Below are positions 25,854-42,872 of a stretch of 64,000 nt of DNA, piece after piece; positions within the stretch are counted from its first letter, which is position 1, and every line of letters starts with the position of its first letter. The stretch is from Myxococcota bacterium. GTDB taxonomy: Bacteria > Myxococcota_A > UBA796 > UBA2385. The position numbers and the translations under genes are program-made. The notes below the pieces were generated by a model, which searched no databases, was not told where the DNA came from, and saw only the letters and a program-made list of their open reading frames with translations. Where the stretch lies: the NCBI GenBank assembly GCA_044344255.1, contig JBIJDH010000028.1, forward strand, positions 13,423-77,422, in the 5' to 3' direction.

Positions 25854-28800
25854 GTGACCACCTTTCAAGGCGACATCGTCAACCGAGTCGCGGGCAACAG
25901 CCCCGACGTCATCCAAGACATCGAGGCGCGGGCCGAAGAGTACGGCCGCTACTCGCCCACCCTCCTGGTCGGCCTCGGCGGCACCGGGGCGCGGGCCCTG
26001 CAGCGCGTCCGCCAGCTCACCATCGAGCGCTTCGGGGCCCTCGATCGGCTGAAGGGGGTCCGCTACCTCTCCATCGACACCGACCTCGGCAGCATCGCGC
26101 CCGACCCCGCCCAGCGCGACGCCGTACACAAGAACGACCCCCTCGCCGCCGAGGTGGCCTTCCAGGAGGGCGAGCGTATCAACCTCGCCGCCCCCCTCGA
26201 GCAGTACCTGCACGAGAACAACATCCTCCAGCACGAGCACATCCGGAGCTGGCTCGATCCGGTCGTGCAGGCGATCAAGATCAACCTCGCCGAGGGGGCC
26301 GGGCAGATCCGCCCCGCCGCGCGCCTCGCCCTCTTTCACAACATGTTCGGCGGGGCCCGTGTCTATCCGGCCCTCGAGACGGCGCTCCGCGACGTGCGCA
26401 AGCAGGAGGTGGGAGACGCCCGCCTGAACAGCCAGGGCACGCTCGTCATCGTCGTCGGCAGCTTCGCCGGGGGTACGGGGGCGGGCATCTTCCTCGACAT
26501 CGCGGCGGCGCTGCGCGCCATCGGCGGCTCGACCACCACCATCATCGGCCACTTCGTGCTCCCCGACGTCTTTCACGACAAGGAGAAGGCGACCAAGGTT
26601 CGGGCGAACGGCTACGCCTGCCTCACCGAGCTCAATCACCACCTCGAGCACCCCTTCGTCGTGTCCTGGCGAGCCGGACAGGCCCCGCTGCGCATCCACT
26701 CCCTGTTTGACCACATCTTCCTGATGGACGGCCGCAACGAGGCCAACCAGCAGGTGAGCAGCCCCGACGACGCCTATCGCACGATCGGTGACAACATCTT
26801 CTCCGAGTTCTTCCAGGGGAAGTTCGCCGCCGTCAAGCGGAGCGTGCGCGTCAATCGAAAGCAGTACCTCGCCCAGTGGTACACGAAGCGACACGCGCTG
26901 CCGCCACGGCCCGGCACCACACGCGATGACGCGCCGATCTGGGTCGACGCCGAGCGCTACCGCACACAATTCCAGTCCTTCGGGATGAGCCGGGTGGTGT
27001 TCCCGGGCTGGCGCCTCTTGAACGCCGCCTCCTATCTGCTCGCCATCGAGCTCATCCGCCACCTCGACAAGCCGCTGGTCATCAGCACAGACCTCGCCCG
27101 CCTCCGCGCCGAGCTGGCCCAGCAGGCGGGCTTCTATCAGGGGGAGCTGACGGTCGAGGGCACCCGGAGCCGCCACTGGTCGGTCTGTCGAGCGCTCAAG
27201 TCCCTCGACGACCCGTCGGGAGAGGGCCTCACCACCCTCCACGACGAGATCGCCCGCACCGCGGCCTGGATCCGCGATCCGATGTGGTCCGAGTCGGCGC
27301 GTCGAGAGAAGGCCACTGGCCCCCGCATCCGCGAGGTGGAGCGGCGCCTCGTCGAGCTCTGGAGCAGCCCCTCAGGGGCGGCGCGGGCGAGCACACGGCC
27401 GGCCCACGTCGAGCTCAATCGACAGGTCTTTCAGGCGACGGTCGCCGCCCGCCTCGACAAGACCATCGAGGACCTCTGTGATCGCGAGCGGATCGGCCCC
27501 ACCCGCGTCTCCGAGCTGCTCGCGAGCCTGTCCGACGAGCTCCGACAGGGCCGGTACCACTACAAGGTGCAGATGCTCGAGGAGGTGGCGCGGGCGCGGG
27601 TGCGCGAGCAGGAGGAGACCACCCGCTACGAGCGGGCCGTGCGCAACGCCGAGGACGCCGAGCAGAGCCTCTTCGTCGGCCGCGGCGGCTATCGGGAGGC
27701 CCTCGACCGCGTGGCCGACGCCCTGCAATCCCGCTGGGAGGCCGCGTGTGACCGCAAGATCTTCGAGGAGGCCGTGCTCGCGATCGAGGAGGTCGCCCGC
27801 CTCTTGGACGAGAAGCGACAGGCCCAAGAGGTGCTGTCCCGCGACCTCGGCGAGATGGCCAGCCGCTATCAAGACCACGCCGAGCTCTACAGCCGAAAGG
27901 ACAGCAGCCCCGGCGTCGAAGAGATTGACCCCGGCCTCCCCCCCGCCCACTACCTGCGCGAGTACCTGGGAGAGACCCCCGACGCCCGGGTGATGAACCT
28001 CGACCGCCTCTTCAAGCGCATCCGCGAGCGGCTGGGCATCCACACCAACCCTGGCCTCCTCCGGCGCGTGCAGGAAGACCGCGCCGGTCTGTCCCGCCTC
28101 CTCCGCGAGCAGTGCTGGCTCTCGCTGCGCGGCAAGGACGGCTGGACCCACGACTTCACCGTCGAGGGCGGGCAACCGAAGCGCGGCTTCATCGAGCGCT
28201 ACTCTGTGCTCAAGGTCCTGCACGAACAATACAAGTCGCCCGACGCGCCCGAGATCGCCCGCGTCGCCGGAGAGGCCTGGAAGAAGGCCAAGGCCTGGAT
28301 CTATCCGACCGACAAGCTCGCCTCGATCCAAGGGGCCGAGGCCGGCGTGCACCGGGACTGCTTCGTCGCCGTGGCCGTGGGCGACGACCCCATCGAGAAG
28401 CGGGTCCACTCGGCGATCGAGGCGGTGCTGAAGAACCAGAACGACGGCCTCTTCCGGCCCCAGTTCGTCTCCGGGTCCGACCCCTGCGAGATCGTGATCT
28501 ACACCGAGACCACCGCCTTCATCCCCGCCTGGCTCTCGTCCCTGCACGGGCCGGACGGCATGAAGGCGGCCTATGACCACTGCATGCGCAGCCGCACCGT
28601 CGAGGCGGCCCTTCACACCGACAAGCACATCGGAAAATACACCCGCCTCGTCCCCCTCGATCCCGCCGAGGTGGGGGCCTTCGCCCTCGCCTGGAAGCGC
28701 CTCGTGCGCGGCCTCCTCACCGGCACCGTCCGCACCGAGCCCGGCCCCGAGCTCGGCAACGAGGCCCCCGAGCTCGGCTTCGACGAGGTCCGACAGGGGA

Positions 28801-29651
28801 ACCGCACGGTCACCCGCCTCGGCCTCGTGGGACAGGCGATCGACGCCCTGATGAGCAACCGCGGCCTCACCGAGCGCCTGGAGCTCCAGATGACCGCCGC
28901 CTGGGAGCGCGCCGGCCAGCGGCCGATCGAGACCCTCGCTCTCATCCGGTACTACCGCTACTGCCTCTTCCCGGCCCTGATCACCGAGGGGGGCCCCGCC
29001 TCCGGCGGCGGGCGAGAGAGCCGCGCCAGCATGGCCTGGCTGGCCCTGGAGGAGCTCGAGGAGGAGGTGCTGCGCATGGGCCGCCTCTCGCGCAGCGACC
29101 GGATGGAGGCGTCGGTGGCCGAGGCGATGCAGCGGCTCCCCGAATTCACCCGCCTCACCGGCCGCCGCGCCGAGGACGTCTCCGGACTGAGCGCCGGCCA
29201 CGGGCGCGACTACGCCGAGTCCAGCGCCACCGTCGAGCGGGAGGAGCTCCGACGCCTCGCCCACGCGCTGCTGCCCGGCCTCATCGCCGGGCCGGAGTGG
29301 GAGCGGCGCGACGTCTTCCCCTGGCTCGCCCTCGACCCCGCCAAGGCCGACCTCGCGCGGGCGCCGGCCGAACGGTCGGTCGAGCCCACCACCTCGGCTG
29401 GTCCGCCGCCGCTGCCGGGGGCCGTGAAGTGGTTCCACAGCGAGGACGGCGAGACCAGCCAGCCCCGCGCCGAGGCTGAGCTCATCGGGCGGATCGCCGC
29501 CACGCCAACCGCCGAACACCTCGTCTGGAAGGAGGGGATGCCCGACTGGCTCCGCTGGCGAGAGGTGCCCGCCCTGGTCGAGAAGGTGGCCCAGCACCGG
29601 CCCCCCGGCGCCCCGCCGCCGCTCCCCGGTCGGAGGCCGGCCGATCCGTGA
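25854..29651 (+). CDS. large tubulin/FtsZ-like GTPase (Tubulin_2/FtsZl1 type) with helical/coiled-coil region and C-terminal GYF_2-like domain
   Basis: LLVGLGGTG, SIDTD, GAGQIR, GSFAGGTGAG tubulin signature, ANGYACLTEL; C-terminal W.....G....LVWKEGMPDW.....VP.L. Confidence 0.88.
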   Translation: MTTFQGDIVNRVAGNSPDVIQDIEARAEEYGRYSPTLLVGLGGTGARALQRVRQLTIERFGALDRLKGVRYLSIDTDLGSIAPDPAQRDAVHKNDPLAAEVAFQEGERINLAAPLEQYLHENNILQHEHIRSWLDPVVQAIKINLAEGAGQIRPAARLALFHNMFGGARVYPALETALRDVRKQEVGDARLNSQGTLVIVVGSFAGGTGAGIFLDIAAALRAIGGSTTTIIGHFVLPDVFHDKEKATKVRANGYACLTELNHHLEHPFVVSWRAGQAPLRIHSLFDHIFLMDGRNEANQQVSSPDDAYRTIGDNIFSEFFQGKFAAVKRSVRVNRKQYLAQWYTKRHALPPRPGTTRDDAPIWVDAERYRTQFQSFGMSRVVFPGWRLLNAASYLLAIELIRHLDKPLVISTDLARLRAELAQQAGFYQGELTVEGTRSRHWSVCRALKSLDDPSGEGLTTLHDEIARTAAWIRDPMWSESARREKATGPRIREVERRLVELWSSPSGAARASTRPAHVELNRQVFQATVAARLDKTIEDLCDRERIGPTRVSELLASLSDELRQGRYHYKVQMLEEVARARVREQEETTRYERAVRNAEDAEQSLFVGRGGYREALDRVADALQSRWEAACDRKIFEEAVLAIEEVARLLDEKRQAQEVLSRDLGEMASRYQDHAELYSRKDSSPGVEEIDPGLPPAHYLREYLGETPDARVMNLDRLFKRIRERLGIHTNPGLLRRVQEDRAGLSRLLREQCWLSLRGKDGWTHDFTVEGGQPKRGFIERYSVLKVLHEQYKSPDAPEIARVAGEAWKKAKAWIYPTDKLASIQGAEAGVHRDCFVAVAVGDDPIEKRVHSAIEAVLKNQNDGLFRPQFVSGSDPCEIVIYTETTAFIPAWLSSLHGPDGMKAAYDHCMRSRTVEAALHTDKHIGKYTRLVPLDPAEVGAFALAWKRLVRGLLTGTVRTEPGPELGNEAPELGFDEVRQGNRTVTRLGLVGQAIDALMSNRGLTERLELQMTAAWERAGQRPIETLALIRYYRYCLFPALITEGGPASGGGRESRASMAWLALEELEEEVLRMGRLSRSDRMEASVAEAMQRLPEFTRLTGRRAEDVSGLSAGHGRDYAESSATVEREELRRLAHALLPGLIAGPEWERRDVFPWLALDPAKADLARAPAERSVEPTTSAGPPPLPGAVKWFHSEDGETSQPRAEAELIGRIAATPTAEHLVWKEGMPDWLRWREVPALVEKVAQHRPPGAPPPLPGRRPADP

Positions 29652-30982
29652 CCGCGGTCCTCCTCGGCGACCTCTCCGTCCTGCGCGTGGAGCCCCCGCG
29701 CTCGCTCTACTCGGTGGCCGGTCAGTCGCGACCGGCCTCCCCGATCCTCGGCAGGAGCGAGGGAGCGCCGGCGACCTGGATCGAGGCGCCGACCTACACC
29801 GCCGACCCCAGCATCGTGCGGCGCCTCCAGCGCGCCTTCACCCTCAAGCTGCTGGGCCCTGCGCCGGCCTTCCCTCGACCGCGGCCGGCAGAGCTCGTCG
29901 AGCAGGAGACCGCGCGGGTGGGGCGAGGAGAGGCCCTCGTGCTGGCGACGACCGGCCGCAGCGCCCGTCACCGGGTGGGTCCGGGCGCGCTCCTGCCCGC
30001 CTTGCTCGCCGGTCAGGCCGCGCTCCAGCACGGGGATCGCCCCCGGCAGATCCTCTATGGCATCGACCAGGACGCCGTCCTCGTCCGCTATGACCCCCAG
30101 GCCGAGGGGCTCCGCTGCTCGGGGGCGCTGCTCCTCCCCGGCTTCGGCGCCCGCGCCTTCACCACCGGCCTCACCTTCACCCTGGCCGGTGAGCTCCAGC
30201 TCCTCGGACGCGGACAGGGAGCGCGGCCCGATCCCGGCCTCCGCCCCCACCTCCTCGGCGTCGCCACCCTCGCCGTCGAGGCCCTGCTCGGCGGGGCCGC
30301 CCACACGACCCTCCTCGCCCCGAGCCCCCTCGGCAAGGTGGAGGTCGGGCTCAGCGTGTCGATCGAGCGGCTCCGGACGCAGGTGGAGGACCGCCCCCTC
30401 CAGAGCGCCGAGCTCGCCGCCCTCTTCAGCCGGGAGACGGTGGTGGCGCTCGAGCCCGGCCTCGTCCACCCCGCGCTCCAGGAGCTGCTGCGGGCCCGCT
30501 CCGGCCTCGTAGAGGTCTCGCTCTTGCACGCGCTCGAGGCGGCTGACCTCGGCCTGTCCGGGCAGCGGATCCGCGGGGCCACCTTCCCCGAGAAGGACCG
30601 ACTCACCGGCGTCGCCGCGACCGCCCTCGACGCCTGGACCACGCTCCCGCCCGTCTGGCTGCTGCCCCTCGACGCCACCCGGTCCGCCCTCACCCCACCG
30701 GCCCCCCGCGAGGACGTCGCCCCGGCGCCTGCAGCCCCGCCCATCGCGACGCCGGCCGCCGCGCTGCCCACCGAGTTCCTGCCCTGGGGCGCCTTCGCCC
30801 TGTCGGCCCTCCCCGACCTGCGCAGCCTGCAGGTCTATCAGGACGAGGCGCTGCTCCCGGCGGACGCCTATACGGTGGAGGCCGAGCCCGGGCCCTGGCC
30901 GGCGGTGCTGCGCTTCAAGGCCGGCCACCTGCCGAGCGCCACCGCCGTGCTGCGCCTGTCCTATCGGGAGCAGCGGCGATGA
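29648..30982 (+). CDS. hypothetical protein of the tubulin-like operon
   Basis: 4-bp start/stop overlaps with both neighbours; host-like codon usage. Confidence 0.7.
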   Translation: MTAVLLGDLSVLRVEPPRSLYSVAGQSRPASPILGRSEGAPATWIEAPTYTADPSIVRRLQRAFTLKLLGPAPAFPRPRPAELVEQETARVGRGEALVLATTGRSARHRVGPGALLPALLAGQAALQHGDRPRQILYGIDQDAVLVRYDPQAEGLRCSGALLLPGFGARAFTTGLTFTLAGELQLLGRGQGARPDPGLRPHLLGVATLAVEALLGGAAHTTLLAPSPLGKVEVGLSVSIERLRTQVEDRPLQSAELAALFSRETVVALEPGLVHPALQELLRARSGLVEVSLLHALEAADLGLSGQRIRGATFPEKDRLTGVAATALDAWTTLPPVWLLPLDATRSALTPPAPREDVAPAPAAPPIATPAAALPTEFLPWGAFALSALPDLRSLQVYQDEALLPADAYTVEAEPGPWPAVLRFKAGHLPSATAVLRLSYREQRR

Positions 30983-33807
30983 CCGCCCCCGCCACCCTCT
31001 CCTGTCCGGACTGCCTGTCCACCCTGTCCTGGCAGGACCGCTTCTGCGGCACCTGCGGCGCACGGGTCGCCCGGCTGCGCCTCGCCGCCGACGATCTGCC
31101 GATCGGCGATCTGGCGGTCCCGCCCGCGATCTGGCTGCTGAACGAGGGCGCCGTCCCCGTCACCGTCACGCTCGGGCCCCCCGAGCCCGGGCAGCCCGCG
31201 CCGCCCCCCTGGCTCCGCCTCCCGAGCCCTGCGATCGAGCGCGTGGTACCGCCGGGGGAGTCCTGCGCGATCCCGCTCACCATCCTGGCCGACGTGCTGC
31301 GGGCCGACGATCCCGCCCTGGTGGGCGCCACTCAGTACAGCCTCCGCCTCCAATCCGACCGCGACTACGCCGACCCTGCGCTCCACCTCCGCCTCCACCT
31401 GCTCGGCCGCTCGGCGCTCCTGCCCGAGCTCGTCGAGCTCCCGGCGCTGCCCCTCGGCCGCGGCCCCATCCCCCTGCCCTTCGCCCTGCACAACGGCGGC
31501 GGACAGCCATTGGAGGTAGAGCGGATCGAGGTCCTCACCGAGGAGGGGATCCCCGTCCTCCTCCCCCGCGGCCGCCCCCCGACCGTGCCGGCCGGACAGA
31601 CCCTCCCCCTCGGCCTCTCGCTGCCGCCCCTCGACCGCCCCGACCTGCTCGGCCGGCTCCTCCGCCTCCGCGTGCGCTGCGTCCACCCGAGCGCGGCCGG
31701 CCTCGCCCCCACCGAGGGAGAGCTGCGCCTCCGCCTCTGTCGGCCGCCCCGCCTCACCGTTCACGGCGGCCCCGCGCTCGTCCGAGTGAGCGGCGGCGAG
31801 CGCTTCGAGGCCGAGCTCCGTAACGAGGGTGACTTCCCGATCGAGGTCCGCGCCCTGCGCAGCGCGGCGCCCTGGCTGAGCGTAGAGCCCCTCGAGGGCT
31901 TGCTCCTCCCCCCGGGCGCCGTGCAGCGGGTGAGCTGGACCGTCCACCCGGAGCGGAGAGAGGGCAACGAGCTCGCAGAGGCCAGGATCCAGGCCGAGCT
32001 CTGCGTCGAGACGATCCCCCCCCTTGATCCACCCCTCCGCCGCCTCATCGCCGTCGAGACCGAGCCCATCCACTCGCTCGACGAGGCGGTGCTGGGCATC
32101 GACTTCGGCACCACCGGCTGCGCGGTCTGTCTGCTCCACCCCGACGCCCCGGCGCCCCTCCCCCTGTCCCTCGAGTGGGAGCCCGCCCGCGGCCGCGACC
32201 TCGCCTCGCTGATGTTCTATCTCGGGGCCCCGGAGACCCCCTTCGTCTATGGCCAGCGGGCCCGGGCGCGGGCCGCCACCGACCCCCACAACCTCGTGCG
32301 CGCCTTGAAGCGGGCCCTCTCCCTCCAGCCCGACCGGGTGTGGCACTTCGCGCACGGCGAGGCCGAGAGCCGCCGCCTCGTCCAGTACGGCGCCGCCGAG
32401 CTCGCTCACGCCCTGCTGGCCGAGCTCCTCCGCCGGGCCGAGCGCGCCTGGCGCGAGCTGCCCCGCGACCAACGCCCCGTCGACGCCGTGGCCGTGCGCT
32501 TCCGCCGCGCGGTCTTCACGCACCCCGTCGAGGCCCCCACCTCCCTCAACGCCGTGCTCTTCGCCGCCGCCCGGGCCGCCGGCCTCGACGGGGGGGCCAC
32601 GAGCGTCGAGGAGTTCGGCCGCTTCGGGCTCATCGACGAGTCGAGCGCCGCCCTGCTGCACTACCTCACGCTGCGGGCCGAGGAGGAGGCCGACGGGGTG
32701 GAGGGCTCGGGCCTGGCCGGCGAGAAGGTGCTCTGCCTCGACGTCGGCGGCGGCACCACCGACATCACCGCGGCGGAGACCGGTGACCCCGCCGCCTTCA
32801 CCCTCGATATCCGCATCCGCGCCACCGCGGGTGACGGCCGCCTCGGCGGCGAGGACCTCGACCGCGCCATCGCCCGCGCCGCCCTCCCCCTCTTCCTCAC
32901 CGCCGCCCCCGACCTGCGCATCGACCTCCTCGACGAGGCCCTCGGCGAGGTCGACCCGCGCGGCCTCCTCTCCCGACTCCCCGGCCTCTCCGCCGCTCAG
33001 GCCGAGGCCGCCGCCCACCGCGTCCACGGTGCGGCCCTCTCGCTCCTCGAACAGGCGGAGCGGGCCAAGATCGAGCTCGGCGGCGCCTCCGGCCCGGACT
33101 CGCTCACCCTCCGGCTCGGCACTGAGGCCCCCCACGGCCCCGACGCCGCGCCGGGCGGCCGCCCCGTCGAGGTCTCCCTCCACCAGAGCGCGGTGGCCCT
33201 CGCGTACGGCGACTGTGCCACCCGCGTGCTCGACCTGCTCGACCGCGCCGTCGACACGGCCGGCTGGCGCTGGACCTCCGTCGATACGCTCCTCCTCACC
33301 GGGCAGACCACCCGCTCCGCCCTCCTGCGCGGCCTCCTGCTCGACGCCGTGCGGGCCCGCCGCGGTGAGCTCCCCCACGTCGTCGACGCCGACCGCTTCG
33401 ATCCCAAGGGCTGCGTCGCCGCCGGCGCGGCCCGCTTCGGCCTCGCCCGCGGGCAGGTGCGGGTGATCCGCCCCGACGGACTGCCCGCCACCCTCGAGCT
33501 CCGCCACCCGCTCACCGGGCGCTGGATCTCTATCGAGGGCCTCCAACAGGGTCGGCCGCTGCCCGCCCGGGCCCGCCTCCCCGCGCGGCCCACGCCGTAC
33601 ACGCTCAACCTCTACGCCGGCCGAAGACTGTTCGGCACCGTTCACGTCGCCTCTCTCCCCTTCAGCGCCGAGGTCGAGCTCCTCTACGATGAAGACCACA
33701 CCGTCTGGCTCACCTGGGACGGGCATCGGCAGCTCCCGGTCACCCTCCTCCCGCTGAGCTCCGCCCCCTCACCCGCCGCGCCGGCCGCCGAGTCGAAGCA
33801 GCCATGA
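30979..33807 (+). CDS. Zn-ribbon + Ig-like repeats + atypical Hsp70-family ATPase fusion
   Basis: N-terminal CPDC...FCGTCG; Ig/BACON-like L.N.G...W-L-V-P..G.L.PG segments; Hsp70 motifs GIDFGTT, IDESSAA, LDVGGGTTD, GGEDLD, AERAKIEL, DPKGCVAAGAA. Confidence 0.85.
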   Translation: MTAPATLSCPDCLSTLSWQDRFCGTCGARVARLRLAADDLPIGDLAVPPAIWLLNEGAVPVTVTLGPPEPGQPAPPPWLRLPSPAIERVVPPGESCAIPLTILADVLRADDPALVGATQYSLRLQSDRDYADPALHLRLHLLGRSALLPELVELPALPLGRGPIPLPFALHNGGGQPLEVERIEVLTEEGIPVLLPRGRPPTVPAGQTLPLGLSLPPLDRPDLLGRLLRLRVRCVHPSAAGLAPTEGELRLRLCRPPRLTVHGGPALVRVSGGERFEAELRNEGDFPIEVRALRSAAPWLSVEPLEGLLLPPGAVQRVSWTVHPERREGNELAEARIQAELCVETIPPLDPPLRRLIAVETEPIHSLDEAVLGIDFGTTGCAVCLLHPDAPAPLPLSLEWEPARGRDLASLMFYLGAPETPFVYGQRARARAATDPHNLVRALKRALSLQPDRVWHFAHGEAESRRLVQYGAAELAHALLAELLRRAERAWRELPRDQRPVDAVAVRFRRAVFTHPVEAPTSLNAVLFAAARAAGLDGGATSVEEFGRFGLIDESSAALLHYLTLRAEEEADGVEGSGLAGEKVLCLDVGGGTTDITAAETGDPAAFTLDIRIRATAGDGRLGGEDLDRAIARAALPLFLTAAPDLRIDLLDEALGEVDPRGLLSRLPGLSAAQAEAAAHRVHGAALSLLEQAERAKIELGGASGPDSLTLRLGTEAPHGPDAAPGGRPVEVSLHQSAVALAYGDCATRVLDLLDRAVDTAGWRWTSVDTLLLTGQTTRSALLRGLLLDAVRARRGELPHVVDADRFDPKGCVAAGAARFGLARGQVRVIRPDGLPATLELRHPLTGRWISIEGLQQGRPLPARARLPARPTPYTLNLYAGRRLFGTVHVASLPFSAEVELLYDEDHTVWLTWDGHRQLPVTLLPLSSAPSPAAPAAESKQP

Positions 33808-35462
33808 CCGGCCCCCCGAAGAACTCCTTTGACCCTCACACCGGCGCCTTCGGCTATCCGAACGCCTGCCCGCGCTGCGGGCTCCCGCTGCCGAGCCGCC
33901 AGCCCCTCCGCGGCCCGGTCGACCACCCCCAGGGCCAGCGCTGCCCGCATTGTCGAGGCCACATCGCATACATCCCCGAGGAGCTGGGCGAAGGGCGTCA
34001 CCGCCGCACCTGGTGGATCCCGGTCCGGCCCGAGGCCCGCTTCAGCCCCCTCAGCGGCCGCGAGTGGCTCGGCCCCGCCGTCGCCGAGTGGGCGGAGCTC
34101 GGCGGCTCCCCCCTGCGCGCCTCCTGCACCCTCGACCCCTCCCGGAGCCTGTCCCCCCGCGAGCCGGGCCGGAGCTGGAGCCGCGTCCGCCTGGACCACT
34201 GGCCGTTGCTCCAGGGCGCCCACCTCGGAAATGGGGACGAAGACCGCATCCGCGCCCTCCAGGTGGCGCGCGGGATGCTCGTCGCCACCACCGCCCGCGG
34301 CGACCTCCACCTGCGCGACCCCGACACCGGCGCCCCGCTGCGCCCGGAGCCCCTGCACACCCGAAACGCGCTCCACGACGAGCCCGTCTACTGGCCGCCC
34401 ACCTGGCGGGGCGGCTTTGTGGCCCTCACCGCCGAGCGCCGCCTGCTCATCGGCGACCTGAGCCCCCTCCTGCGCGACCGCGCGCGGGGCCGCCCCCGCC
34501 TCCAGACCTGGACCCTCCCGGAGGGGGAGAGCTGGGCCACCGCCCCCTTCGCCCTCGACCGCGACCCCTGGAGCGGCCCCCGCTTCGGCGCCGTCTCGCT
34601 CGACCGCAGCGGCCGCAGCGCCCGCCTCGTCCTGCTCGACGCGGCGCCGGTGCGCGAAGACCAGCCCCCGCGCCTCCTCTACGAGGGCCGCATCGACGCC
34701 GCCGTGGCCCCCGTCGTGCTCCCCCACCTCCACCCTGGCGCGCCGTGGGCTGGCCAGCTCCTCTGGGTCGACACCCAGGGCCGCGTGAACCTGCTCGACC
34801 CCGAGACCGGCCTCCTCTCCGCCCCCCTCGGCGCGCCCCCCGCGCTCCCGAGCCCACCGCCGGGCGCCCCACCGCCCCTGCGCGGGCGCCTCCCCTGGCG
34901 CCGCACCCACCTCGCCGTTGAGGCCGACCGCGACAACGAGGCCGTCTGGATGGTCCAGGAGGACCCCCAGGGCGAGCCTATCCTCCGCCGCTGGTCGCTG
35001 CGCGCCGAGGCCTGGGAGGACCGCCGCGAGCTCAGCCGCGACATCGGCGCCGCCGCGCCCTGGCTGGCCCTCCACCCCTACACCCCCGAGGGAGAGCCCG
35101 GCCGCGTCGTCGTCGCCGGCAGCGCCTACTACGAGCTCCACCGCAAGAGCGGGGCCGACCGCGACCCCCTCAACAAGGCCGACCGCACCCTCGGCCTCCA
35201 CCGCTCGATGGGCGAGGACGCCCGCACCATCGGCCCGCCCATCCTCACCCCCGCCGGCCTCGTCACCTTTCACCCCTCCGAGCTGCGCCTCACCGCCAAC
35301 CACCCCACCCGCCCCGAGGCCGTGACCGTCCTCGACCGCGACCCGGTGCCCCTCTGCCGGGCCTGGTCCGACTTCGAGACCTTCCCTTGCGCCATCGGCA
35401 GCACCGTCTGGTGCGCCACCGAGGGCGGCGCCGTGGTGCGGGCGGAGTTCGCGCAGCGGTGA
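33804..35462 (+). CDS. Zn-ribbon protein with a probable beta-propeller-like region
   Basis: CPRCG...CPHC; repeated short strands of the type V.T..G.L.L.DP.TG; ATGA overlap with the Hsp70 gene. Confidence 0.65.
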   Translation: MTGPPKNSFDPHTGAFGYPNACPRCGLPLPSRQPLRGPVDHPQGQRCPHCRGHIAYIPEELGEGRHRRTWWIPVRPEARFSPLSGREWLGPAVAEWAELGGSPLRASCTLDPSRSLSPREPGRSWSRVRLDHWPLLQGAHLGNGDEDRIRALQVARGMLVATTARGDLHLRDPDTGAPLRPEPLHTRNALHDEPVYWPPTWRGGFVALTAERRLLIGDLSPLLRDRARGRPRLQTWTLPEGESWATAPFALDRDPWSGPRFGAVSLDRSGRSARLVLLDAAPVREDQPPRLLYEGRIDAAVAPVVLPHLHPGAPWAGQLLWVDTQGRVNLLDPETGLLSAPLGAPPALPSPPPGAPPPLRGRLPWRRTHLAVEADRDNEAVWMVQEDPQGEPILRRWSLRAEAWEDRRELSRDIGAAAPWLALHPYTPEGEPGRVVVAGSAYYELHRKSGADRDPLNKADRTLGLHRSMGEDARTIGPPILTPAGLVTFHPSELRLTANHPTRPEAVTVLDRDPVPLCRAWSDFETFPCAIGSTVWCATEGGAVVRAEFAQR

Positions 35463-35678
35463 CGGGGAGTGGCGGCGCGACGCCAACCGAGGACCGCCGC
35501 GAACGACAGCGGGGCACAGAAGCGGAGTAGAGGACCGCCCAAGTCTAAACAGAATTCATCAGAACCACAAAGGTCACAGCCTCGGCGGTCTACGCCCATC
35601 CCGCACTCGGTTTGGCGCACAAACCGTCTTTGTCAACCTCAAAGACAGACCTACCGTCCGCCTCAGCTATGAGCTATT

Positions 35679-36146
35679 TCACCCTTCACTCCTCCGCTTA
35701 GTCTCAACGACTCGAACATCAAAAGATACATCAAATCCACCGTAGTGCCGGGTATGGCCGCTCTTCTTGTCCCCCACGATGATTCCACCGTAACCAGCCT
35801 GAAACCCTATTAATCCATCAAGAAAACGCATTCTGGGCCCCACCCTCCCGTAAACCATGTCCGCGACAATCGCTTGCTTCTCCGTCGAAACACGATCCAC
35901 GACGTCCGACCACCGCACTCCCACCATGACCAACGAGAGGTCGAGAACTGAACCCTGATCGAAGTTGAAGAACCCCGCGGATCCCCCTAGTAGATAGCTT
36001 CGCATCGCGTCCTGGTTCACCTCCGTCCGCCCCGACATCGGGAGAAACACCAGCGCCGGAACGGTTCGAATCTCTCCATGAAATGTTGAGTATCCAGCTT
36101 CCGCTGCCTGAGTAAGGGCTAACTGAATTGCCAGCGCTGGGATCAT
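35679..36146 (-). CDS. small exported hypothetical protein with atypical (lower-GC) codon usage
   Basis: GGAGG RBS, ATG at 36146, signal-like N-terminus, beta-strand-like C-terminus (GGFDVSFDVR). Confidence 0.55.
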   Translation of the reverse strand: MIPALAIQLALTQAAEAGYSTFHGEIRTVPALVFLPMSGRTEVNQDAMRSYLLGGSAGFFNFDQGSVLDLSLVMVGVRWSDVVDRVSTEKQAIVADMVYGRVGPRMRFLDGLIGFQAGYGGIIVGDKKSGHTRHYGGFDVSFDVRVVETKRRSEG

Positions 36147-36438
36147 CGCACCTCCGAATCTGCCTGAGGCAGGACACATTGGAGCGTACACCCTGAGTGC
36201 TATGCGAGGGGGCTTCGTGGAACAAATTTCAACACGTGGAACATCCGCCTGCGATCCAGGAACTCGCTCCTCGGTGACCCACACAAAGGGCTCGGGCCAA
36301 GAGGAACCGCACGCCACCCGTCCGTACACTGCTCGGCTCCGCGAAGGCCACCTGCTCCGCAGAAGCAAGTAGCGTCAACGCGCTCACCCCACGGACGCTC
36401 AGAATGCCTCGGATCCCGGCCCGGGATAAAGCCGCGCG

Positions 36439-39400
36439 ATGAGCGACGGCACCGGTCTCCGCCTCCACCTCCCCGCCCTCCTCCAAGCCTGGCTCGAGGC
36501 CGACCTCCTGGCGGACCGCCGAGCCCGGCTGGCCGACGGAGGGGCTGACGCGGACGATGGTGTAGATCTGGCGCGGGTCTTCGTAGACCTGCCGGCGAGC
36601 TGGCGTGCGCCAGGAGGGGAGTGGGTCCCCCACGGGAAGGTCCTCCAGCACCTCCTCGGCTGCCCCGCGGAGGCGCCGCCCCGCGCGCTGATCATCGGCG
36701 GGCCAGGTGCCGGAAAGTCGACCGTAACGGCGATGCTCGCCCAGGCCCTGCGCGCCGCCTGGCTCGACACGGTCGAGGTAGGAGAGCCCCAGACGGGCGA
36801 GGCCCCCCGCGGAGCGGGTGCCCCCCTGCCGGAGGTGGAGACGGTGGTGGCGGAGCTCGCGGCCATCGGCGCGCGCTTGCAGTGGCCGAAGAGCGAGCGC
36901 CCGGTCACCTTCCCGCTCCGCATCGATCTCCCCGAGCTCCGCCGCTGGATGGCGGAGCGGTCCGGTCCGTCGGTCTGGGCCTTCCTCGCCGGCCGGGCCG
37001 AGCGCGACCTCCGCCTCCGCGGTCGCCCCCAGCCCGTGGCGACCGAGGCCCTCCAGGCCGCCGTGCTCGCCCTGGGGCCGACCCTTTGGATCCTCGACGG
37101 CCTCGATGAAGTGCCCCCCTCCGCGGGCCGGGCCGAGCTCCTCACCGCGCTCCGAGCGGAGCGGCGGGCGGGCGATGGTTGGATCGTCTCCACCCGTCCC
37201 CAGGGCTACCAGGACGAGCTGGACGAGCTCCGCCCCATCGAGCTCCTTCCGCTCGACGCCGGAATCGCCAACGCCTACGCAGAGGGGCTGGTCGGCGCCT
37301 GGATCCGCGATCCAGTGCTGCGGGAGGGCAAGCTCGACGAGCTGCGAAGACAGCTCGACCGCGCCGACGTCCGGGAGCTGCTCACGAGCCCCCTTCATGT
37401 GACGATGGCCACGCTGCTGGTGCTCGCCGAAGGAGAGCTGCCCCTCTCTCGCGCCGCACTCTTTCAACAATACTTCGAGCTGAGCTGGAAGCGTGAGCTC
37501 CGCAAGCAGAGCGGCCACGGCCTCCAGGTCACCGACAAGGCGCTGATCGTAGACCTGCACCGCCGCGCCGCCCTCAGCCTGCAGGTCCGCGCCCAGGCCT
37601 CGGCGGGGGCCCGACCCGGCCTGCGGCGGAGAGAGCTGCGCGCCCTACTGCTCTCGCTCTACGAGGGCCTCGGCGAGCCGCCCGAGCGGGCCCGCGAGCA
37701 AGCGGATCGGATGGCGCGCTTCGCCGTCGAGCGCCTCGTCTGGATCGTCCAGGATGTGCAGGGGGAGCACAGCTTCACCATCCGGCCCCTTCAAGAGCAC
37801 TTCGCGGCGGAGGCGCTGATCGAGGGCGAGGTCGAGGAGGTGCGGCGACGCTTCGAGGCCATCGCGACAGACCCGCACTGGGAGGGGGTGCTCCGCCTCG
37901 CGGCCAGCGCACTGGCCAGCCGCACTGGGGCGCGCGACCTCCGCCTCGCCCAGCGCGGCCTCGTAGAGCTCTGCCGCGACCTCAACGCCGGTCGCGTGGG
38001 CGGCGAGGGCGCCTGCCGCCTCTACCTCGGCTCCCGGCTCGCGATGACGATCCTCGGAGAGACCGCCGGCTATGGCAAGCCCTGGCTTCACGACGGACTG
38101 TGGGATGTTGCCCTGGAGGCAGCCAAAGCACCGAGGATGGCAGAGGTTACGCGGGTGCAGCAGCGAGAGGACAGCTCATCCGGGAAGAGAACCAACGCCG
38201 ATCGTTTCGCGTTCCGAGCGGAGCTCCATCACCGGCTGGGGAACCTGGTTTGCCGATGGCCGAGTCCGGATCGCGAGGCGCTCCAGGGTCGGCTGCTCCG
38301 TATTGTCGAGGAGCTGCTTGGCGATGGGGAAGCCCGCTGGAACGCTTGGCGGATCCTCGAGGTCCTCGCTGGCGGCGAAGATCCAGCCTTCCTCGACCTG
38401 GCCGACCGCCATTTCCCCACCCATGCTGCCGAAGTGCGTCGCCTCGCCCGCCAGTGGTCGGGCAGTCTCTGGAACGGCGGAGCGGTCCTTCGCCGCAGAA
38501 TGCTGGAGCTGCGGCCGGAGCTGCACACACCTTCGGACACCGTCGCCAGCGACCGAGACAGCCTCAGCAGCCCCATCGCCAAACAGCTGGCCGTACTCCG
38601 GAGATCTCTTCAGCGGAACCTCGGAGTTTGGGTCGTTTGGGCCGGAGAGCCCAAGGTAATTGCGGGAGTTCTTACTGAGTCAGGTAACCCCAACCCGGCG
38701 TTACTCGCGCTCGACGGGCTCGATAACTGGCTCCATCCTCGTCGGGGACTGTGGAGGGCCCTCACCGACTTTCACACTTCCACCACGCCCGACACCCTCG
38801 CGGAGCTGCTCGCGATCGCTGCGGCCAACTTCGCGGACTTCGAAGCACTTCGGGAGGCGGAGTGGGCCCATCCCTGGCAGCTCCGCTGCATCCTGGCCGC
38901 AGTCGAGCGACCGGAAGAACTCGCCCCAATCGAGGCATTGGTCTCCAGCGGAACGCTCGGGAGTGCAGCCGACTGGCTGGCGGCCGAGCGCCGTTGGACG
39001 GAGATGGCCTCGCTCTCGACCGAAGATCTGCGTCCTTGGATCGAGACAGACGCGCCGTGGAACCACGACATAGGCGAGCGCGGCATCCCATGGCCTGAGC
39101 TGCGGCAGTGGGGCTCCGCGACAGATCACCCGGAGCTCCGCCGCGCTTTCCAACTGGCTCTGATTCAGCCCTCCTCCCGTCTTTGGAAGGCCGCACACCT
39201 GGCACAGCGGCTCCTGGCGCTGGACAGCAATCAGCCGCTGGTCGCCTTTCCCATCGCGGCTTCCGCCGAAGCATGCCAGGAGCCGCGGCGAATGCACTCG
39301 CTGCGCGCGATTGCCTCTCTCCTGCCCGATCTCGGCGGGCCCCATGCGGACCAATGGTACGAGCTGCTCGACCATCGAGGCAAGCGCAGCTCGGAGCCTG

Positions 39401-41199
39401 TCACCGTTTGGCGAGACGACCGCCCCGCACGGTGTCGTCGCCTGTCGGAGATCATTGTCCAACTCGTGCAACGGGTCAGCGTTCAGCCCGACCAGTGGGG
39501 GCTCATCGACACAATCGGCGCCGCTCTGTTCGGAGCGCCCACCGCCGACCTCTCTGACCTGGATTGGGGGAGACTGCCAGAGGGCATGCCTGCACAGGCA
39601 CTCGGCGGACGTGCGCAACTGCAGCTGCTCGCCGGTCCGATTGAGGCAGCCAAGCGGGGGGAGCTCCTCTCCCTGCTCGGCGACCCATCCGGAACTTACG
39701 ACTACCGGGGCGGGCTCACACAGATCGTACCTTTGCGGCGCGGCTTGCCGGACCGCGAGTCCCTGCTGCTCGGGGCCCTCGAAGCCGAACCACCGCCCTC
39801 CGAGGACGTGCGGGACGCGCTGCTCGGCGCCCTGCAGGAGGTCCGCCTCCAGGAGCAGCGTCCGGCCTTCGACTCCGTGGCCGCCTGGGCGGCGGCGGGA
39901 CTGCCCGAGCCCTTCCTGCCCCTCCCGAAGGCCGGGGGTGCCGTCGTCCTGCACGCGATCCGCCGCCTCAAGAACATCCGGGCTTTCGCCGACACCCCCG
40001 CGGTCAGCCGCCCCTTTCCCATCCCACGGGCCGACGAGGGGCAGTGGATCCTGCTCATCGGCGAGAACGGGGTCGGAAAGACCACCCTGCTCCGGGCCCT
40101 GGCCCTCGCCCTCGCCGAGCCGGCGGTTGGCACCAAGCTGATAGATGAGCGAACCCCCCTGCTGCGCAACGGCGGGGAGGGAGAGGTCGAGGTGCTGGTC
40201 GGCGAGGGGCCCTTCGGGGTGAGGGTGCGGCGGACGGGGCGGGCGGAGGAGGTCGTCTCCGAGGCCGAGCCGGAGGCGGGCCCCGAGCGGCCCTGGGTGG
40301 TCGCTTACGGGGTGCGCCGCGGCGACGCCCGCGGTGAGTTCGATCAGGGGGCCCCCGAGGCCGGCCCCGTCGGCGAGCTGCACACCCTGTTCGATCGCCG
40401 CGCCTCTCTCCACCGCGCCTCCGCCTGGCTCTTTACGGCCGAGGCCAACGCCGGCCGCGAAGCCCGGAGAGGTCCGGGGAGCTCCGGCAAGCACGCCGCG
40501 GTGTGGGCCGCGGCGAAGAAGGCGCTGGTGAAGCTCCTGGAGCTCTCCGACCTCTTCGTGGACGAGGACGGGGTCGTCCGGGTGGACCACCCCACCTTCG
40601 GCACCCTGCGCCTGGACGCGCTCAGCGACGGATACCTGACCACCGCTGGCTGGGTGATCGACATGCTGGCCCGCTGGGTGATCCGCCAGGACGAGCTCGA
40701 CGCCCCCTTCGGCGCAGACCTCCTCTCCGAGATGCGCGGGCTCGTGCTCATCGACGAGATCGACCTCCACCTGCACCCGCTGTGGCAGCTCCGCGCGGTG
40801 GAGGACCTCCGCGCCCTCTTCCCCCGGCTCAGCTTCATCGCCACCACCCACAACCCCCTCTGCCTGCAGGGCGCGCGGGCGGGGGAGATCTACCGGATGC
40901 GCCGCGTGGGGACCGAGCTCCGCCTGGAGCAGGAGGACATCACCCCCGGCGACGACGTAGACCGCATTCTGCTCGATCAGTTCGGCGTCCCCCACACCGA
41001 AGACCCCGGCACCCGCCTGCTCCTGGCTCGACACCGGCAGCTCCTCCGCGAAGGCAAGGCCGATGACGCCGAGCGGCGGAGCATTGAGCGGGAGCTGGCC
41101 GAACGCCTCGGTGGGCCGCCACCCGCGCTGGGCGGCGGGGGCCGGCGGCTCGGCGTCGAAGAGCGCCCCCTGCTCACACCGTTCTTGAAGCGGCGCTGA
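36439..41199 (+). CDS. NACHT (STAND) NTPase fused to a C-terminal PtuA/AAA_21-type ABC ATPase
   Basis: NACHT: GGPGAGKST (36697), WILDGLDE, STRPQGY, SPLHVTM, F..RPLQEHFAA. ABC ATPase: LKNIRAF, GENGVGKTT (40060), LSDGY, LIDEIDLHLHPLWQ, TTHNP. Confidence 0.88.
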   Translation: MSDGTGLRLHLPALLQAWLEADLLADRRARLADGGADADDGVDLARVFVDLPASWRAPGGEWVPHGKVLQHLLGCPAEAPPRALIIGGPGAGKSTVTAMLAQALRAAWLDTVEVGEPQTGEAPRGAGAPLPEVETVVAELAAIGARLQWPKSERPVTFPLRIDLPELRRWMAERSGPSVWAFLAGRAERDLRLRGRPQPVATEALQAAVLALGPTLWILDGLDEVPPSAGRAELLTALRAERRAGDGWIVSTRPQGYQDELDELRPIELLPLDAGIANAYAEGLVGAWIRDPVLREGKLDELRRQLDRADVRELLTSPLHVTMATLLVLAEGELPLSRAALFQQYFELSWKRELRKQSGHGLQVTDKALIVDLHRRAALSLQVRAQASAGARPGLRRRELRALLLSLYEGLGEPPERAREQADRMARFAVERLVWIVQDVQGEHSFTIRPLQEHFAAEALIEGEVEEVRRRFEAIATDPHWEGVLRLAASALASRTGARDLRLAQRGLVELCRDLNAGRVGGEGACRLYLGSRLAMTILGETAGYGKPWLHDGLWDVALEAAKAPRMAEVTRVQQREDSSSGKRTNADRFAFRAELHHRLGNLVCRWPSPDREALQGRLLRIVEELLGDGEARWNAWRILEVLAGGEDPAFLDLADRHFPTHAAEVRRLARQWSGSLWNGGAVLRRRMLELRPELHTPSDTVASDRDSLSSPIAKQLAVLRRSLQRNLGVWVVWAGEPKVIAGVLTESGNPNPALLALDGLDNWLHPRRGLWRALTDFHTSTTPDTLAELLAIAAANFADFEALREAEWAHPWQLRCILAAVERPEELAPIEALVSSGTLGSAADWLAAERRWTEMASLSTEDLRPWIETDAPWNHDIGERGIPWPELRQWGSATDHPELRRAFQLALIQPSSRLWKAAHLAQRLLALDSNQPLVAFPIAASAEACQEPRRMHSLRAIASLLPDLGGPHADQWYELLDHRGKRSSEPVTVWRDDRPARCRRLSEIIVQLVQRVSVQPDQWGLIDTIGAALFGAPTADLSDLDWGRLPEGMPAQALGGRAQLQLLAGPIEAAKRGELLSLLGDPSGTYDYRGGLTQIVPLRRGLPDRESLLLGALEAEPPPSEDVRDALLGALQEVRLQEQRPAFDSVAAWAAAGLPEPFLPLPKAGGAVVLHAIRRLKNIRAFADTPAVSRPFPIPRADEGQWILLIGENGVGKTTLLRALALALAEPAVGTKLIDERTPLLRNGGEGEVEVLVGEGPFGVRVRRTGRAEEVVSEAEPEAGPERPWVVAYGVRRGDARGEFDQGAPEAGPVGELHTLFDRRASLHRASAWLFTAEANAGREARRGPGSSGKHAAVWAAAKKALVKLLELSDLFVDEDGVVRVDHPTFGTLRLDALSDGYLTTAGWVIDMLARWVIRQDELDAPFGADLLSEMRGLVLIDEIDLHLHPLWQLRAVEDLRALFPRLSFIATTHNPLCLQGARAGEIYRMRRVGTELRLEQEDITPGDDVDRILLDQFGVPHTEDPGTRLLLARHRQLLREGKADDAERRSIERELAERLGGPPPALGGGGRRLGVEERPLLTPFLKRR

Positions 41200-41206
41200 G
41201 CCTTCC

Positions 41207-42034
41207 ATGCTCGCCTGGCCCCTCCCCGCTCCGCCCGACGGCTTCGAAGCCCACGCCGCCCGCCTCACGGGCGAGGTGCGGGGCCTCGTCGGCACCGGGA
41301 AGCCGAAGGGGGAGCACTTCGTCGGCCGGGAGATCTGGACCCGCTCCTGGCGAAGGCTCCACCACAAAGACGCGATGCTCCCTCCGGTCCCAGGCCTCGT
41401 GGCCTGCTACTGGTGCGAGCAGCTCCGCTCCGGGAACCGCGAGCTCGACGTGGAGCACTACCGCCCCAAGGTCGAGGTCACCCGTTGGGAGGGCCGGCCC
41501 TCCTTCGTCGCCGACGAGCCCCCGCCCGAGCGAAACGCAGTCTCCGGCTACTGGTGGCTGGCCTTTCGCTGGGACAACTACGCCCTGTCCTGCAAGACCT
41601 GCAATTCCCACTGGAAGCGCAACCTCTTCCCCCTCGACGGAGGAGCTTCGCCCTGTCTGGAGGGCGAGGAAGAGAGTGAGCCCGCCTTGCTCCTCCGCCC
41701 CGGCGCCGCCTTCCGCACCGCCGACCACTTCGAGTGGACCGTCGACGGCCACATGCTCCCCCTCACCGAGGCCGCCTACGCCACCCTCGTCACCTGCGGC
41801 CTCAACCGCATCGAGCTGGTCGCCGCCCGCAAGAAGGTCCTCGGAGACACACGCTTCCACCTCGAGGAGTTCCTCCGGACGCTCCGAACGGGTGACTCTC
41901 CGCGCCAGCAATATCATTGGAAGTGGCTCTGCAGGAGCGGGGCACGGGGCTCGGAATTCGCGGGGATGGTCCGGTGGCAAGTGGAGCGCGCCCTCGGGGT
42001 GGAGTGGGGAGAGCTCGACGGCGCGCCGGACTGA
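41207..42034 (+). CDS. HNH endonuclease, PtuB/Septu-like
   Basis: CYWCE...VEHYRPK...YWWLAF.WDNY.LSC..CN..K.N.FP, LL.P, T...CGLNR..L...R. Confidence 0.85.
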   Translation: MLAWPLPAPPDGFEAHAARLTGEVRGLVGTGKPKGEHFVGREIWTRSWRRLHHKDAMLPPVPGLVACYWCEQLRSGNRELDVEHYRPKVEVTRWEGRPSFVADEPPPERNAVSGYWWLAFRWDNYALSCKTCNSHWKRNLFPLDGGASPCLEGEEESEPALLLRPGAAFRTADHFEWTVDGHMLPLTEAAYATLVTCGLNRIELVAARKKVLGDTRFHLEEFLRTLRTGDSPRQQYHWKWLCRSGARGSEFAGMVRWQVERALGVEWGELDGAPD

Positions 42035-42086
42035 ACCCAACCATCGGGGCGGGCCCTCCACGGTTACGGATGGCCGGGGGTGGCCT

Positions 42087-42872
42087 GTGCACTGGATCCT
42101 CGAGGGTGGCGTCTTCGCCAGCGGCTTTGACCTCGGTCCGGCCGCTCGCGCGGCGGGGCACGCGGTGACGCGCTGGGACGACGACTGGTGGGAGACCGGC
42201 CGTTGGCCTCGCCCGGAGAGGCGCGGTGTGGTCTTTCACGGCAGCCTCGGCAACGCCGCCCAGATCGGCGAGCGACTGCCGTGGCGCCCGGGCGGCCTCT
42301 GTGACACCGCCGCCTTCTGCTGTTCGGCCTGGTATCCCCGGGCCGCGCCCTGGCTGTTTCAGCGAGGTTGGCGGCGCTGCAGCGCAGCCGAGCTCGTCGC
42401 CCACCCGCCCGACTGGCCCGCCTTCTTCGTTCGACCAGACAGCCCGCTGAAGGCGTTTTCGGGGCGCGTCCTCCCACGGGCGGCCCTGTCCTTGGAGGCC
42501 ATGGACTTCGGCTACTACTTCGATGATCCCTCGCTCCCCGTGATCGTCGCCCCGGCGCGGCCCGTCGAGCGGGAGTGGCGCTACGTGGTGGTCGAGGGGC
42601 GGGTCGTCGCCGGCAGCGCCTATGCCGCCGACGGGCGGCGGCCGCTCCCCGACGCGCCCGACGGCGCCCCCTGGGCCTTCGCGCAGCAGATCGCCGCGCA
42701 GCTCGAGCCTCCCACGCCGCTCTATGTCCTCGACCTCTGCGCCTCGGAGGGGCAGCTCTTCCTCCTCGAGCTCAACCCCTTCGGCGGCGCCGATCTCTAC
42801 GCCTGCGACCCGCACGCAGTCGTAGCGGCGGTCGCCGATTGGGTGGTGTCGGCGGCGCCGCCCCCCCGCTGA
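42087..42872 (+). CDS. ATP-grasp domain protein (DUF4343/R2K-like)
   Basis: FVRPDSPLKAFSG, EWRYVVVEGRVV, YVLDL......LLELNP; GTG start at 42087. Confidence 0.75.
   Translation: MHWILEGGVFASGFDLGPAARAAGHAVTRWDDDWWETGRWPRPERRGVVFHGSLGNAAQIGERLPWRPGGLCDTAAFCCSAWYPRAAPWLFQRGWRRCSAAELVAHPPDWPAFFVRPDSPLKAFSGRVLPRAALSLEAMDFGYYFDDPSLPVIVAPARPVEREWRYVVVEGRVVAGSAYAADGRRPLPDAPDGAPWAFAQQIAAQLEPPTPLYVLDLCASEGQLFLLELNPFGGADLYACDPHAVVAAVADWVVSAAPPPR

Follow-up and report, generated by a model that had tools for sequence, protein, structure and literature searches.

A NACHT-PtuA gene with an adjoining HNH nuclease gene

The window analysed here is a 64,000-nt stretch of the genome of a Myxococcota bacterium (GenBank assembly GCA_044344255.1, contig JBIJDH010000028.1, positions 13,423 to 77,422), and we describe a pair of forward-strand genes within it that combines defence systems of two known kinds in an apparently uncharacterised hybrid. 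The larger gene (36439..41199), an open reading frame (ORF) translated without an internal stop and with homologues elsewhere, encodes a 1586-aa protein in which a NACHT/STAND module, a putative sensor and a PtuA-type ABC ATPase follow one another. The second gene (41207..42034), whose ATG lies 7 nt past the TGA of the first, encodes a 275-aa PtuB-type zinc-finger HNH nuclease, so identified by PADLOC and by its motifs; it is the next gene in all 43 distinct fused ORFs that we collected.

The NACHT/STAND module, made up of a nucleotide-binding domain, HD1, a winged helix and HD2, takes up residues ~10-560 (36466..38118, borders approximate) and was assigned by its fold match and motifs: Walker A at residue 87 (36697-36723), Walker B at 217 (37087-37110), TRP at 252, SPL at 317 and the winged-helix motif QEHFAA at 446-457. 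Residues 561-1150 (38119..39888), mostly helical in the structural model, are the putative sensor, and a short proline-rich linker visible in the family alignment (39889..39963) joins it to the PtuA ATPase core (39964..40938), which was recognised by PADLOC, PDB and Foldseek matches. The core carries Walker A at residue 1208 (40060-40083), the LSDG signature at 1395, the Walker B/D-loop DEIDLHLHP at 1439 and the H-loop TTH at 1469. It is followed by a C-terminal helical domain (40939..41196), seen in the helices of the model and in the identity among homologues. The HNH protein has CxxC at residues 67-70, EHYRPK at 83 and CxxCN at 129-133. All motifs named in the original prediction were found in the translations, and its spacing of 7 nt between the two genes is borne out by the ORF coordinates. 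Judged by their kept motifs, both NTPases look active.

The original prediction had also placed the NACHT module almost at the first residue and noted the absence of a reverse transcriptase (RT), and both statements hold. The module begins at about residue 10, and the stop-to-stop frame of the gene is 1589 aa, which leaves at most three codons before the ATG and therefore too little space for an N-terminal effector. RT motifs are absent from all frames of the window and from the 43 fused loci, and the single RVT_1 match of the genome lies on contig C2 and not on the window contig.

The fusion is continuous and conserved

Several observations bear on whether the two halves are truly joined. Of 64 database homologues, 27 cover 95% or more of the protein, with 37-42% identity. 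Pieces of contigs from four studies that are not flagged as possible sources of the assembly tile positions 35950-42053 with one mismatch; each overlap is at least 165 nt, and two of the pieces cross the junction between sensor and PtuA. Unbroken fusions are present in two complete genomes, those of Sorangium cellulosum So0157-2 (NC_021658.1, L048) and Burkholderiaceae UC74_6 (CP170561.1, L040). An assembly chimera, or a recent non-functional fusion, could draw on the metagenome-type source assembly of 83 contigs, on the lack of any one independent contig that runs through the entire gene, and on homologous loci that are split or frameshifted (L005, L011, L050, L057 and L144). It is refuted by the full-length homologues, the complete genomes and the bridging contigs, and we give it almost no weight. 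The NACHT-PtuA gene and its PtuB gene are a real, widely conserved gene pair. Split or frameshifted copies also occur at L092 and L119, and the L011 fusion is intact in a matching metagenome contig (L083).

The search for full-length homologues with an adjoining HNH gene, which the original prediction had proposed, was successful. The 148 loci fetched yielded 45 ORFs, 43 of them distinct, that are hit by the NACHT profile as well as the PtuA profile, a set that takes in six split or 5'-open ORFs, a few forms with a short sensor and one unrelated NACHT-HEAT fusion (L018). Walker A and Walker B of the NACHT are kept in 37 of the 43, and the six ORFs without them are presumably the split or 5'-open ones. 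For PtuA, Walker A is found in 42, the signature in 40, the Walker B/D-loop in 39 and the H-loop in 43, and the catalytic motifs of HNH are kept in 38-41 of the 43, depending on the motif. Pairwise distances of NACHT, PtuA and HNH correlate over 36 loci (Spearman 0.66-0.72), which indicates co-inheritance only, because kin share their history. The clade of the window's gene pair was recovered in both trees.

Fusions occur in Myxococcota, Betaproteobacteria, Desulfocapsa and Riflebacteria, and cultured, non-pathogenic carriers include Uliginosibacterium sediminicola (L042), Mitsuaria sp. (L056) and S. cellulosum (L048). Distribution across related genomes is patchy: NACHT and PtuA matches fall in one frame in 2 of 40 such genomes, many of which are incomplete. 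The plasmids searched held no full-length fusion, and the phage collection searched gave no match. Shorter NACHT-PtuA fusions with the sensor partly or wholly missing (L008:7959-10826, P0055, P0073, P0115, L043 and L099) may be natural deletions or misassemblies.

PtuA, an ATPase, and PtuB, a nuclease

Residues 1192-1551 of the large protein match the PADLOC PtuA model (E 3e-51) and the HNH protein matches PtuB (E 8e-32), while both score far under the NCBIfam cut-offs for the Ec78 proteins. A PDB entry for PtuA matches the ATPase part with E 2e-18. The model of residues 561-1586 has a mean confidence (pLDDT) of 85 and a pTM of 0.70, and its Foldseek matches include Septu and retron PtuA. In this model the C-terminal domain contains three helices at residues 1507-1557, a region with a mean identity of 47% over 37 homologues. 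The corresponding helices of PtuA bind PtuB in solved PtuAB complexes (PMC12673091). The spacing from Walker A to the signature is 176-193 aa in 40 fused ORFs, so that this stretch is 60-75 residues shorter than in solved PtuA structures; higher-order assembly of the fused ATPase may therefore depend on the receptor.

The NACHT module and the putative sensor

PADLOC models, including those for Avs and bNACHT, gave no match to residues 1-1170. The N-terminal half scores E 4.5e-4 against Pfam NACHT, under the cut-off, and the whole protein scores E 4.6e-9 with its best stretch on the PtuA P-loop. Because the first score is weak and the better one falls on the wrong P-loop, the NACHT assignment rests on fold; the profile and structure searches proposed for the two halves thus gave PtuA and PtuB by PADLOC and NACHT by structure. 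For residues 1-1170, AlphaFold gave a confident, compact model (pLDDT 87, pTM 0.90) that in structure searches matches NLRC4, NOD2 and NLRP3 best, over residues ~10-600 (Foldseek E 5e-8), with NOD2 aligning over 427 residues (VIA Z 17.2, root-mean-square deviation 7.7). By this predicted structure the N-terminal part is confirmed as an NLR-type NACHT module. Its Walker A, Walker B and arginine motifs are invariant in 59 relatives, and family-wide the winged-helix motif reads FxIRSLQE.

The region that we take to be the sensor is ~590 aa long and mostly helical, with a single beta-hairpin at residues 728-745 in the model, and it is longer than the minimum of 400 aa set for the C-terminal helical sensors of NACHT/STAND receptors. 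It is the fastest-evolving part of the protein (19-27% identity, against 40-57% in the two NTPases) and has a GC content at third codon positions of 0.76, against 0.88-0.92. Neither Pfam nor PADLOC yielded a family for it. A protein-atlas search with the sensor returned scores of 0.76 to unnamed clusters and nothing more, and structure searches with the longer models singled out no known fold, because the NACHT or PtuA domain filled their results. Complex prediction between residues 600-1163 of the sensor and residues 1168-1586 of PtuA scored 0.00, a value that weighs neither for nor against contact.

A sister family with an N-terminal nuclease

A profile-free search with residues 1-1170 returned 1930 relatives. 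The largest group among those listed consists of proteins of ~1300-1340 aa (e.g. WP_373258531.1) that begin with a ~185-aa Mrr-like nuclease (GxDGG...QxK) and continue with NACHT and sensor as in the fusion. This family of restriction endonuclease (REase)-NACHT-sensor proteins has 1153 members at E<=1e-30, a count that may include fused forms. Two homologue searches pooled, with the query included, gave 199 NACHT-positive relatives, of which 75 have PtuA and 93 the REase motif. No protein combines the two, and 31 lack both; the last are fragments, proteins with other N-termini or cases in which the pattern missed the motif. The sensors of the two forms align over their full length (HHalign probability 100, 519 columns), and the sensor profile of the fused family matches 87 of 95 REase-form proteins, reaching 90% of its length in 61 of these 87. 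The REase-form proteins end ~15 residues (median) past the sensor, at the point where the fused form continues through the linker into PtuA, and 10 REase-form loci showed no HNH or PtuA match. This mutual exclusion on a shared receptor suggests, from comparison of the sequences, that PtuA and PtuB fill an effector slot and that the two effectors have been exchanged on one receptor.

In five PtuA fusions a divergent domain of 130-150 aa, without a catalytic motif, is kept at the N-terminus. One of the five matches the REase profile (E 5e-6); pooled, they match only the last 41 columns of that profile (HHalign probability 38, best of 30 shuffles 0.3). They give only a hint that such proteins could be intermediates with a degenerate REase.

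Relatives of the nuclease form are found in Enterobacteriaceae, namely in E. coli H2 (L165:6001-9993, WP_096949132.1; in 3 of 5426 genomes) and at L162:2956-6918. The E. coli protein, a convenient handle for the nuclease form, is encoded between the P2 replication and portal genes (gpA-gpQ), an interval described as a defence hotspot (PMC13586616). The same NACHT also occurs behind other N-termini, either an HNH domain or a domain of ~300 aa that looks helical (P0089, P0101, P0111 and L164:1895-5323). The sister family may be one of Avs11-24: its QxK at residues 64-66 resembles the label of an AxAvs14 mutant, a position that is generic.

PtuA joined to other partners

Related PtuA proteins carry 41 other N-terminal extensions, among them TIR (10: L014, L022, L027, L036, L051, L055, L087, L090, L091 and L094), PNP (5: L015, L017, L019, L021 and L037), EAD1 (1: L025), a calcineurin-like phosphoesterase (1: L058) and NACHT-HEAT (1). 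The last, at L018:4989-9500, joins a different NACHT with HEAT repeats to PtuA, is followed by HNH and apparently arose independently. The 600-1300-aa extensions of L026, L034, L052 and L061 have no Pfam match. In the PtuA tree, TIR-PtuA and stand-alone PtuA nest within the NACHT-fused clades. Given the TIR, PNP, EAD1 and phosphoesterase fusions, PtuA is a mobile module, and its joining to a NACHT is one instance among several.

Comparison with known systems

Septu is an ATP-inhibited DNase with a PtuA6:PtuB2 assembly. The gene pair shares with it an ABC ATPase with LSDG and DExDLHLHP, a helical C-terminal domain and an HNH gene directly downstream. It differs in that PtuA does not stand alone and is the last quarter of a 1586-aa protein, behind 1170 residues of NACHT and sensor, which excludes it from classic Septu. 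The Walker A-to-signature spacing also differs, ~250 in E. coli Septu PtuA as against 176-193 in the fusions. Septu itself responds to falling ATP, which relieves the inhibition (PMC12673091).

The type I-A retrons (Eco7/Ec78 and Eco4/Ec83) likewise place PtuAB under a separate control module at the PtuA N-terminus. In Eco7 the N-terminal domain of PtuA contacts the complex of RT and multicopy single-stranded DNA (msDNA) (PMC12673091), and the sensor of the fusion is attached on that same side of the ATPase. RT-msDNA restrains the toxic PtuAB (PMC12673091, PMC12640716), and the free retron effector has the stoichiometry PtuA4:PtuB2 (title of PDB 9nnk). The pair is no type I-A retron, since the window and the 43 fused loci contain no RT, although no search was made for the non-coding RNA. 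Its controller is a covalently fused protein, and its ATPase insert is ~75 residues shorter, so that a 56-residue coiled coil would probably not fit.

Like the Avs and bNACHT proteins (Kibby 2023; Lee 2026), the fusion has a NACHT with a DGLDE Walker B, a winged helix and, C-terminal to these, a long helical region as putative sensor, and its Walker B follows the pattern D[GAS]hDE (Kibby, 10.1101/2022.07.19.500537). The sister family carries their classic N-terminal Mrr-like QxK nuclease. Unlike them, the fusion has no N-terminal effector, adds a second NTPase at the C-terminus and keeps its nuclease in a separate gene. The winged-helix motif of NLRs carries a His, which FxIRSLQE lacks. Avs3 matches the model of residues 1-1170 weakly and at the level of the NTPase only (Foldseek E 2e-4). 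C-terminal effectors are a known minority among bacterial NACHT proteins (Kibby, 10.1101/2022.07.19.500537), and a reported Avs10 effector mutation lies at residues 1263-1265, so a C-terminal effector is not in itself new.

The literature searched, PADLOC and NCBIfam contain no description of a NACHT-PtuA fusion, within a search that stopped short of Krishnan 2020, which may mention such fusions. PtuA, Septu and HNH were not found in the text and seven supplements of Lee 2026, which leave out its main supplementary tables; those tables probably include this NACHT clade. The whole word 'ABC' is absent from Kaur 2020 and Kaur 2021.

Genomic neighbourhood

Directly 3' of the HNH gene lies a forward-strand gene for an R2K-clade ATP-grasp protein (42087-42872, Pfam), and a kinase gene is also found downstream. 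Across the 20 scanned loci the ATP-grasp gene did not recur as a conserved neighbour. Upstream, separated from the fusion gene by a spacer of lower GC content (35462-36438, GC 0.65) that may mark the edge of an insertion, there is an operon-like run on the forward strand (25854-35462) encoding a 1265-aa tubulin-like/GYF protein, an unknown 444-aa protein, a 942-aa Hsp70-like protein and an unknown 552-aa protein, possibly a conflict or cytoskeletal module. The spacer holds a short minus-strand ORF (~35679-36152) with no Pfam match. A tRNA-Glu(CTC) gene is located at 56157-56241 on the forward strand. Elsewhere in the source genome there are five further PtuA-like matches and one distant 1347-aa NACHT (contigs C69, C56, C38, C7, C74 and C25). 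Of 153 ORFs picked at 21 loci, the neighbour scan took in 144, at 20 loci; L069 and one ORF of L007 were left out because of their size. Neighbour genes vary from locus to locus, and most loci sit among housekeeping genes.

Proposed function and alternatives

We favour, with a probability of roughly 65%, the reading in which an Avs/NLR-like receptor gates PtuAB as a two-gene antiphage system. By analogy with Avs biology, the resting receptor would be closed and would keep its PtuA domain from acting productively. Once the helical sensor had bound a conserved protein of the phage, the NACHT would exchange nucleotide and oligomerise. Tethered PtuA domains could then meet as ATP-sandwiching head-to-head dimers that hold PtuB and switch it on, and PtuB would cut tRNA or DNA so that the infection is aborted. 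Avs sensors recognise conserved proteins of phages and form oligomers, a tetramer in the case of Avs7 (Lee 2026, PMC13581612); an Avs7-like tetramer might, speculatively, supply four PtuA domains, the count of the PtuA4:PtuB2 effector of type I-A retrons. In favour of gating count the apparent effector exchange with the sister family, the HNH gene following all 43 fused ORFs, the kept motifs of both NTPases, the correlated distances of the three modules, the attachment of the sensor where Eco7 PtuA contacts RT-msDNA, the patchy distribution with changing neighbours, and the hotspot position of the E. coli relative.

Within the gating reading, activation by such assembly is a tentative choice, and release from a pre-formed inhibited complex is a less likely route. 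Retrons restrain and then release PtuAB, whereas STAND proteins usually activate by assembly. ABC ATPases of the PtuA kind dimerise unaided. Eco7 PtuAB is toxic once free (PMC12640716). These last two points fit restraint better than assembly.

Other observations weigh against gating as a whole. Evidence for a defence-island context is weak: clear defence neighbours (a type I restriction-modification system, GmrSD and an Mks-like system) occur at 3 of 20 loci and possible ones at two more, figures that have no background rate beside them, and the window's own neighbours include no known defence genes. In this clade of PtuA the HNH gene lies next to fused and unfused forms alike, and PtuA-derived patterns were used to fetch the genome loci. 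Apart from one further row, the REase forms group in a single clade (21 rows, SH-aLRT 96), so their mutual exclusion with PtuA may reflect one or few events. In the NACHT tree the outgroup was not monophyletic, branches were long and the root is unreliable, so that we do not order the REase and PtuA forms in time. The relatives from E. coli and Klebsiella align through the REase, the NACHT and the beginning of the sensor only, and both sensor profiles miss them. Of the original interpretation, the apparent exchange with a nuclease in the sister family newly supports PtuAB as the receptor's effector; a defence function, and a STAND sensor in the controlling place of the retron, are proposals.

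Two rival readings keep the gene pair and change the part played by the receptor. PtuA-PtuB might sense infection itself as an autonomous Septu, with NACHT and sensor serving as a scaffold or adding an input that is separate from the first. This clade of PtuA does occur alone and behind TIR, PNP, EAD1, calcineurin-like and NACHT-HEAT partners, which makes any single fusion less surprising and keeps the reading alive. The nesting of TIR-PtuA and stand-alone PtuA inside the NACHT-fused clades points the same way, as do L008, P0055 and P0073, which join NACHT to PtuA with little or no sensor, and the report that Septu functions without one (PMC12673091). Yet the NACHT half, which has no other effector, keeps its Walker A, Walker B and arginine motifs invariant and has travelled with PtuA and PtuB through several phyla, and the sister form has a nuclease where the fused form has none; we regard an autonomous Septu as improbable. 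Alternatively, the wiring could be as proposed and the input not a phage but a plasmid or mobile-element protein, host damage or a myxobacterial kin or predation cue, leading to programmed death. Carriers are often Myxococcota, and a number of these have several paralogues; housekeeping genes surround most loci; and some STAND proteins have no identified trigger and may sense non-protein molecules (Lee, PMC13581612). Against this, the fusion is also found in unicellular Betaproteobacteria, Desulfocapsa and Riflebacteria, and the characterised PtuAB systems in the literature compared are antiphage; we regard a non-phage input as quite improbable.

Implications

Somewhat short of even odds, in our estimate, the fusions represent an undescribed multi-phylum class of NLR-like receptor in which a STAND switch followed by an ABC switch in one chain would control a separate HNH nuclease, and oligomerisation of the receptor would build PtuA4:PtuB2. 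In that case PtuAB would serve as an interchangeable effector that is subject to no control, to RT-msDNA or to a STAND, and one receptor would occur in nature either with a simple nuclease or with PtuAB. The studies of retron PtuAB could not reconstitute cleavage in vitro (PMC12673091, PMC12640716). How PtuA switches PtuB is unsettled, and a built-in, protein-triggered switch would make activation inducible by one defined ligand. With the natural REase/PtuAB pair, a trigger could be identified in the simple form and then applied to the fused form. The gene pair would extend the known effectors of NLR-like receptors by a two-component ATPase-nuclease and illustrate the extent to which defence modules are exchanged.

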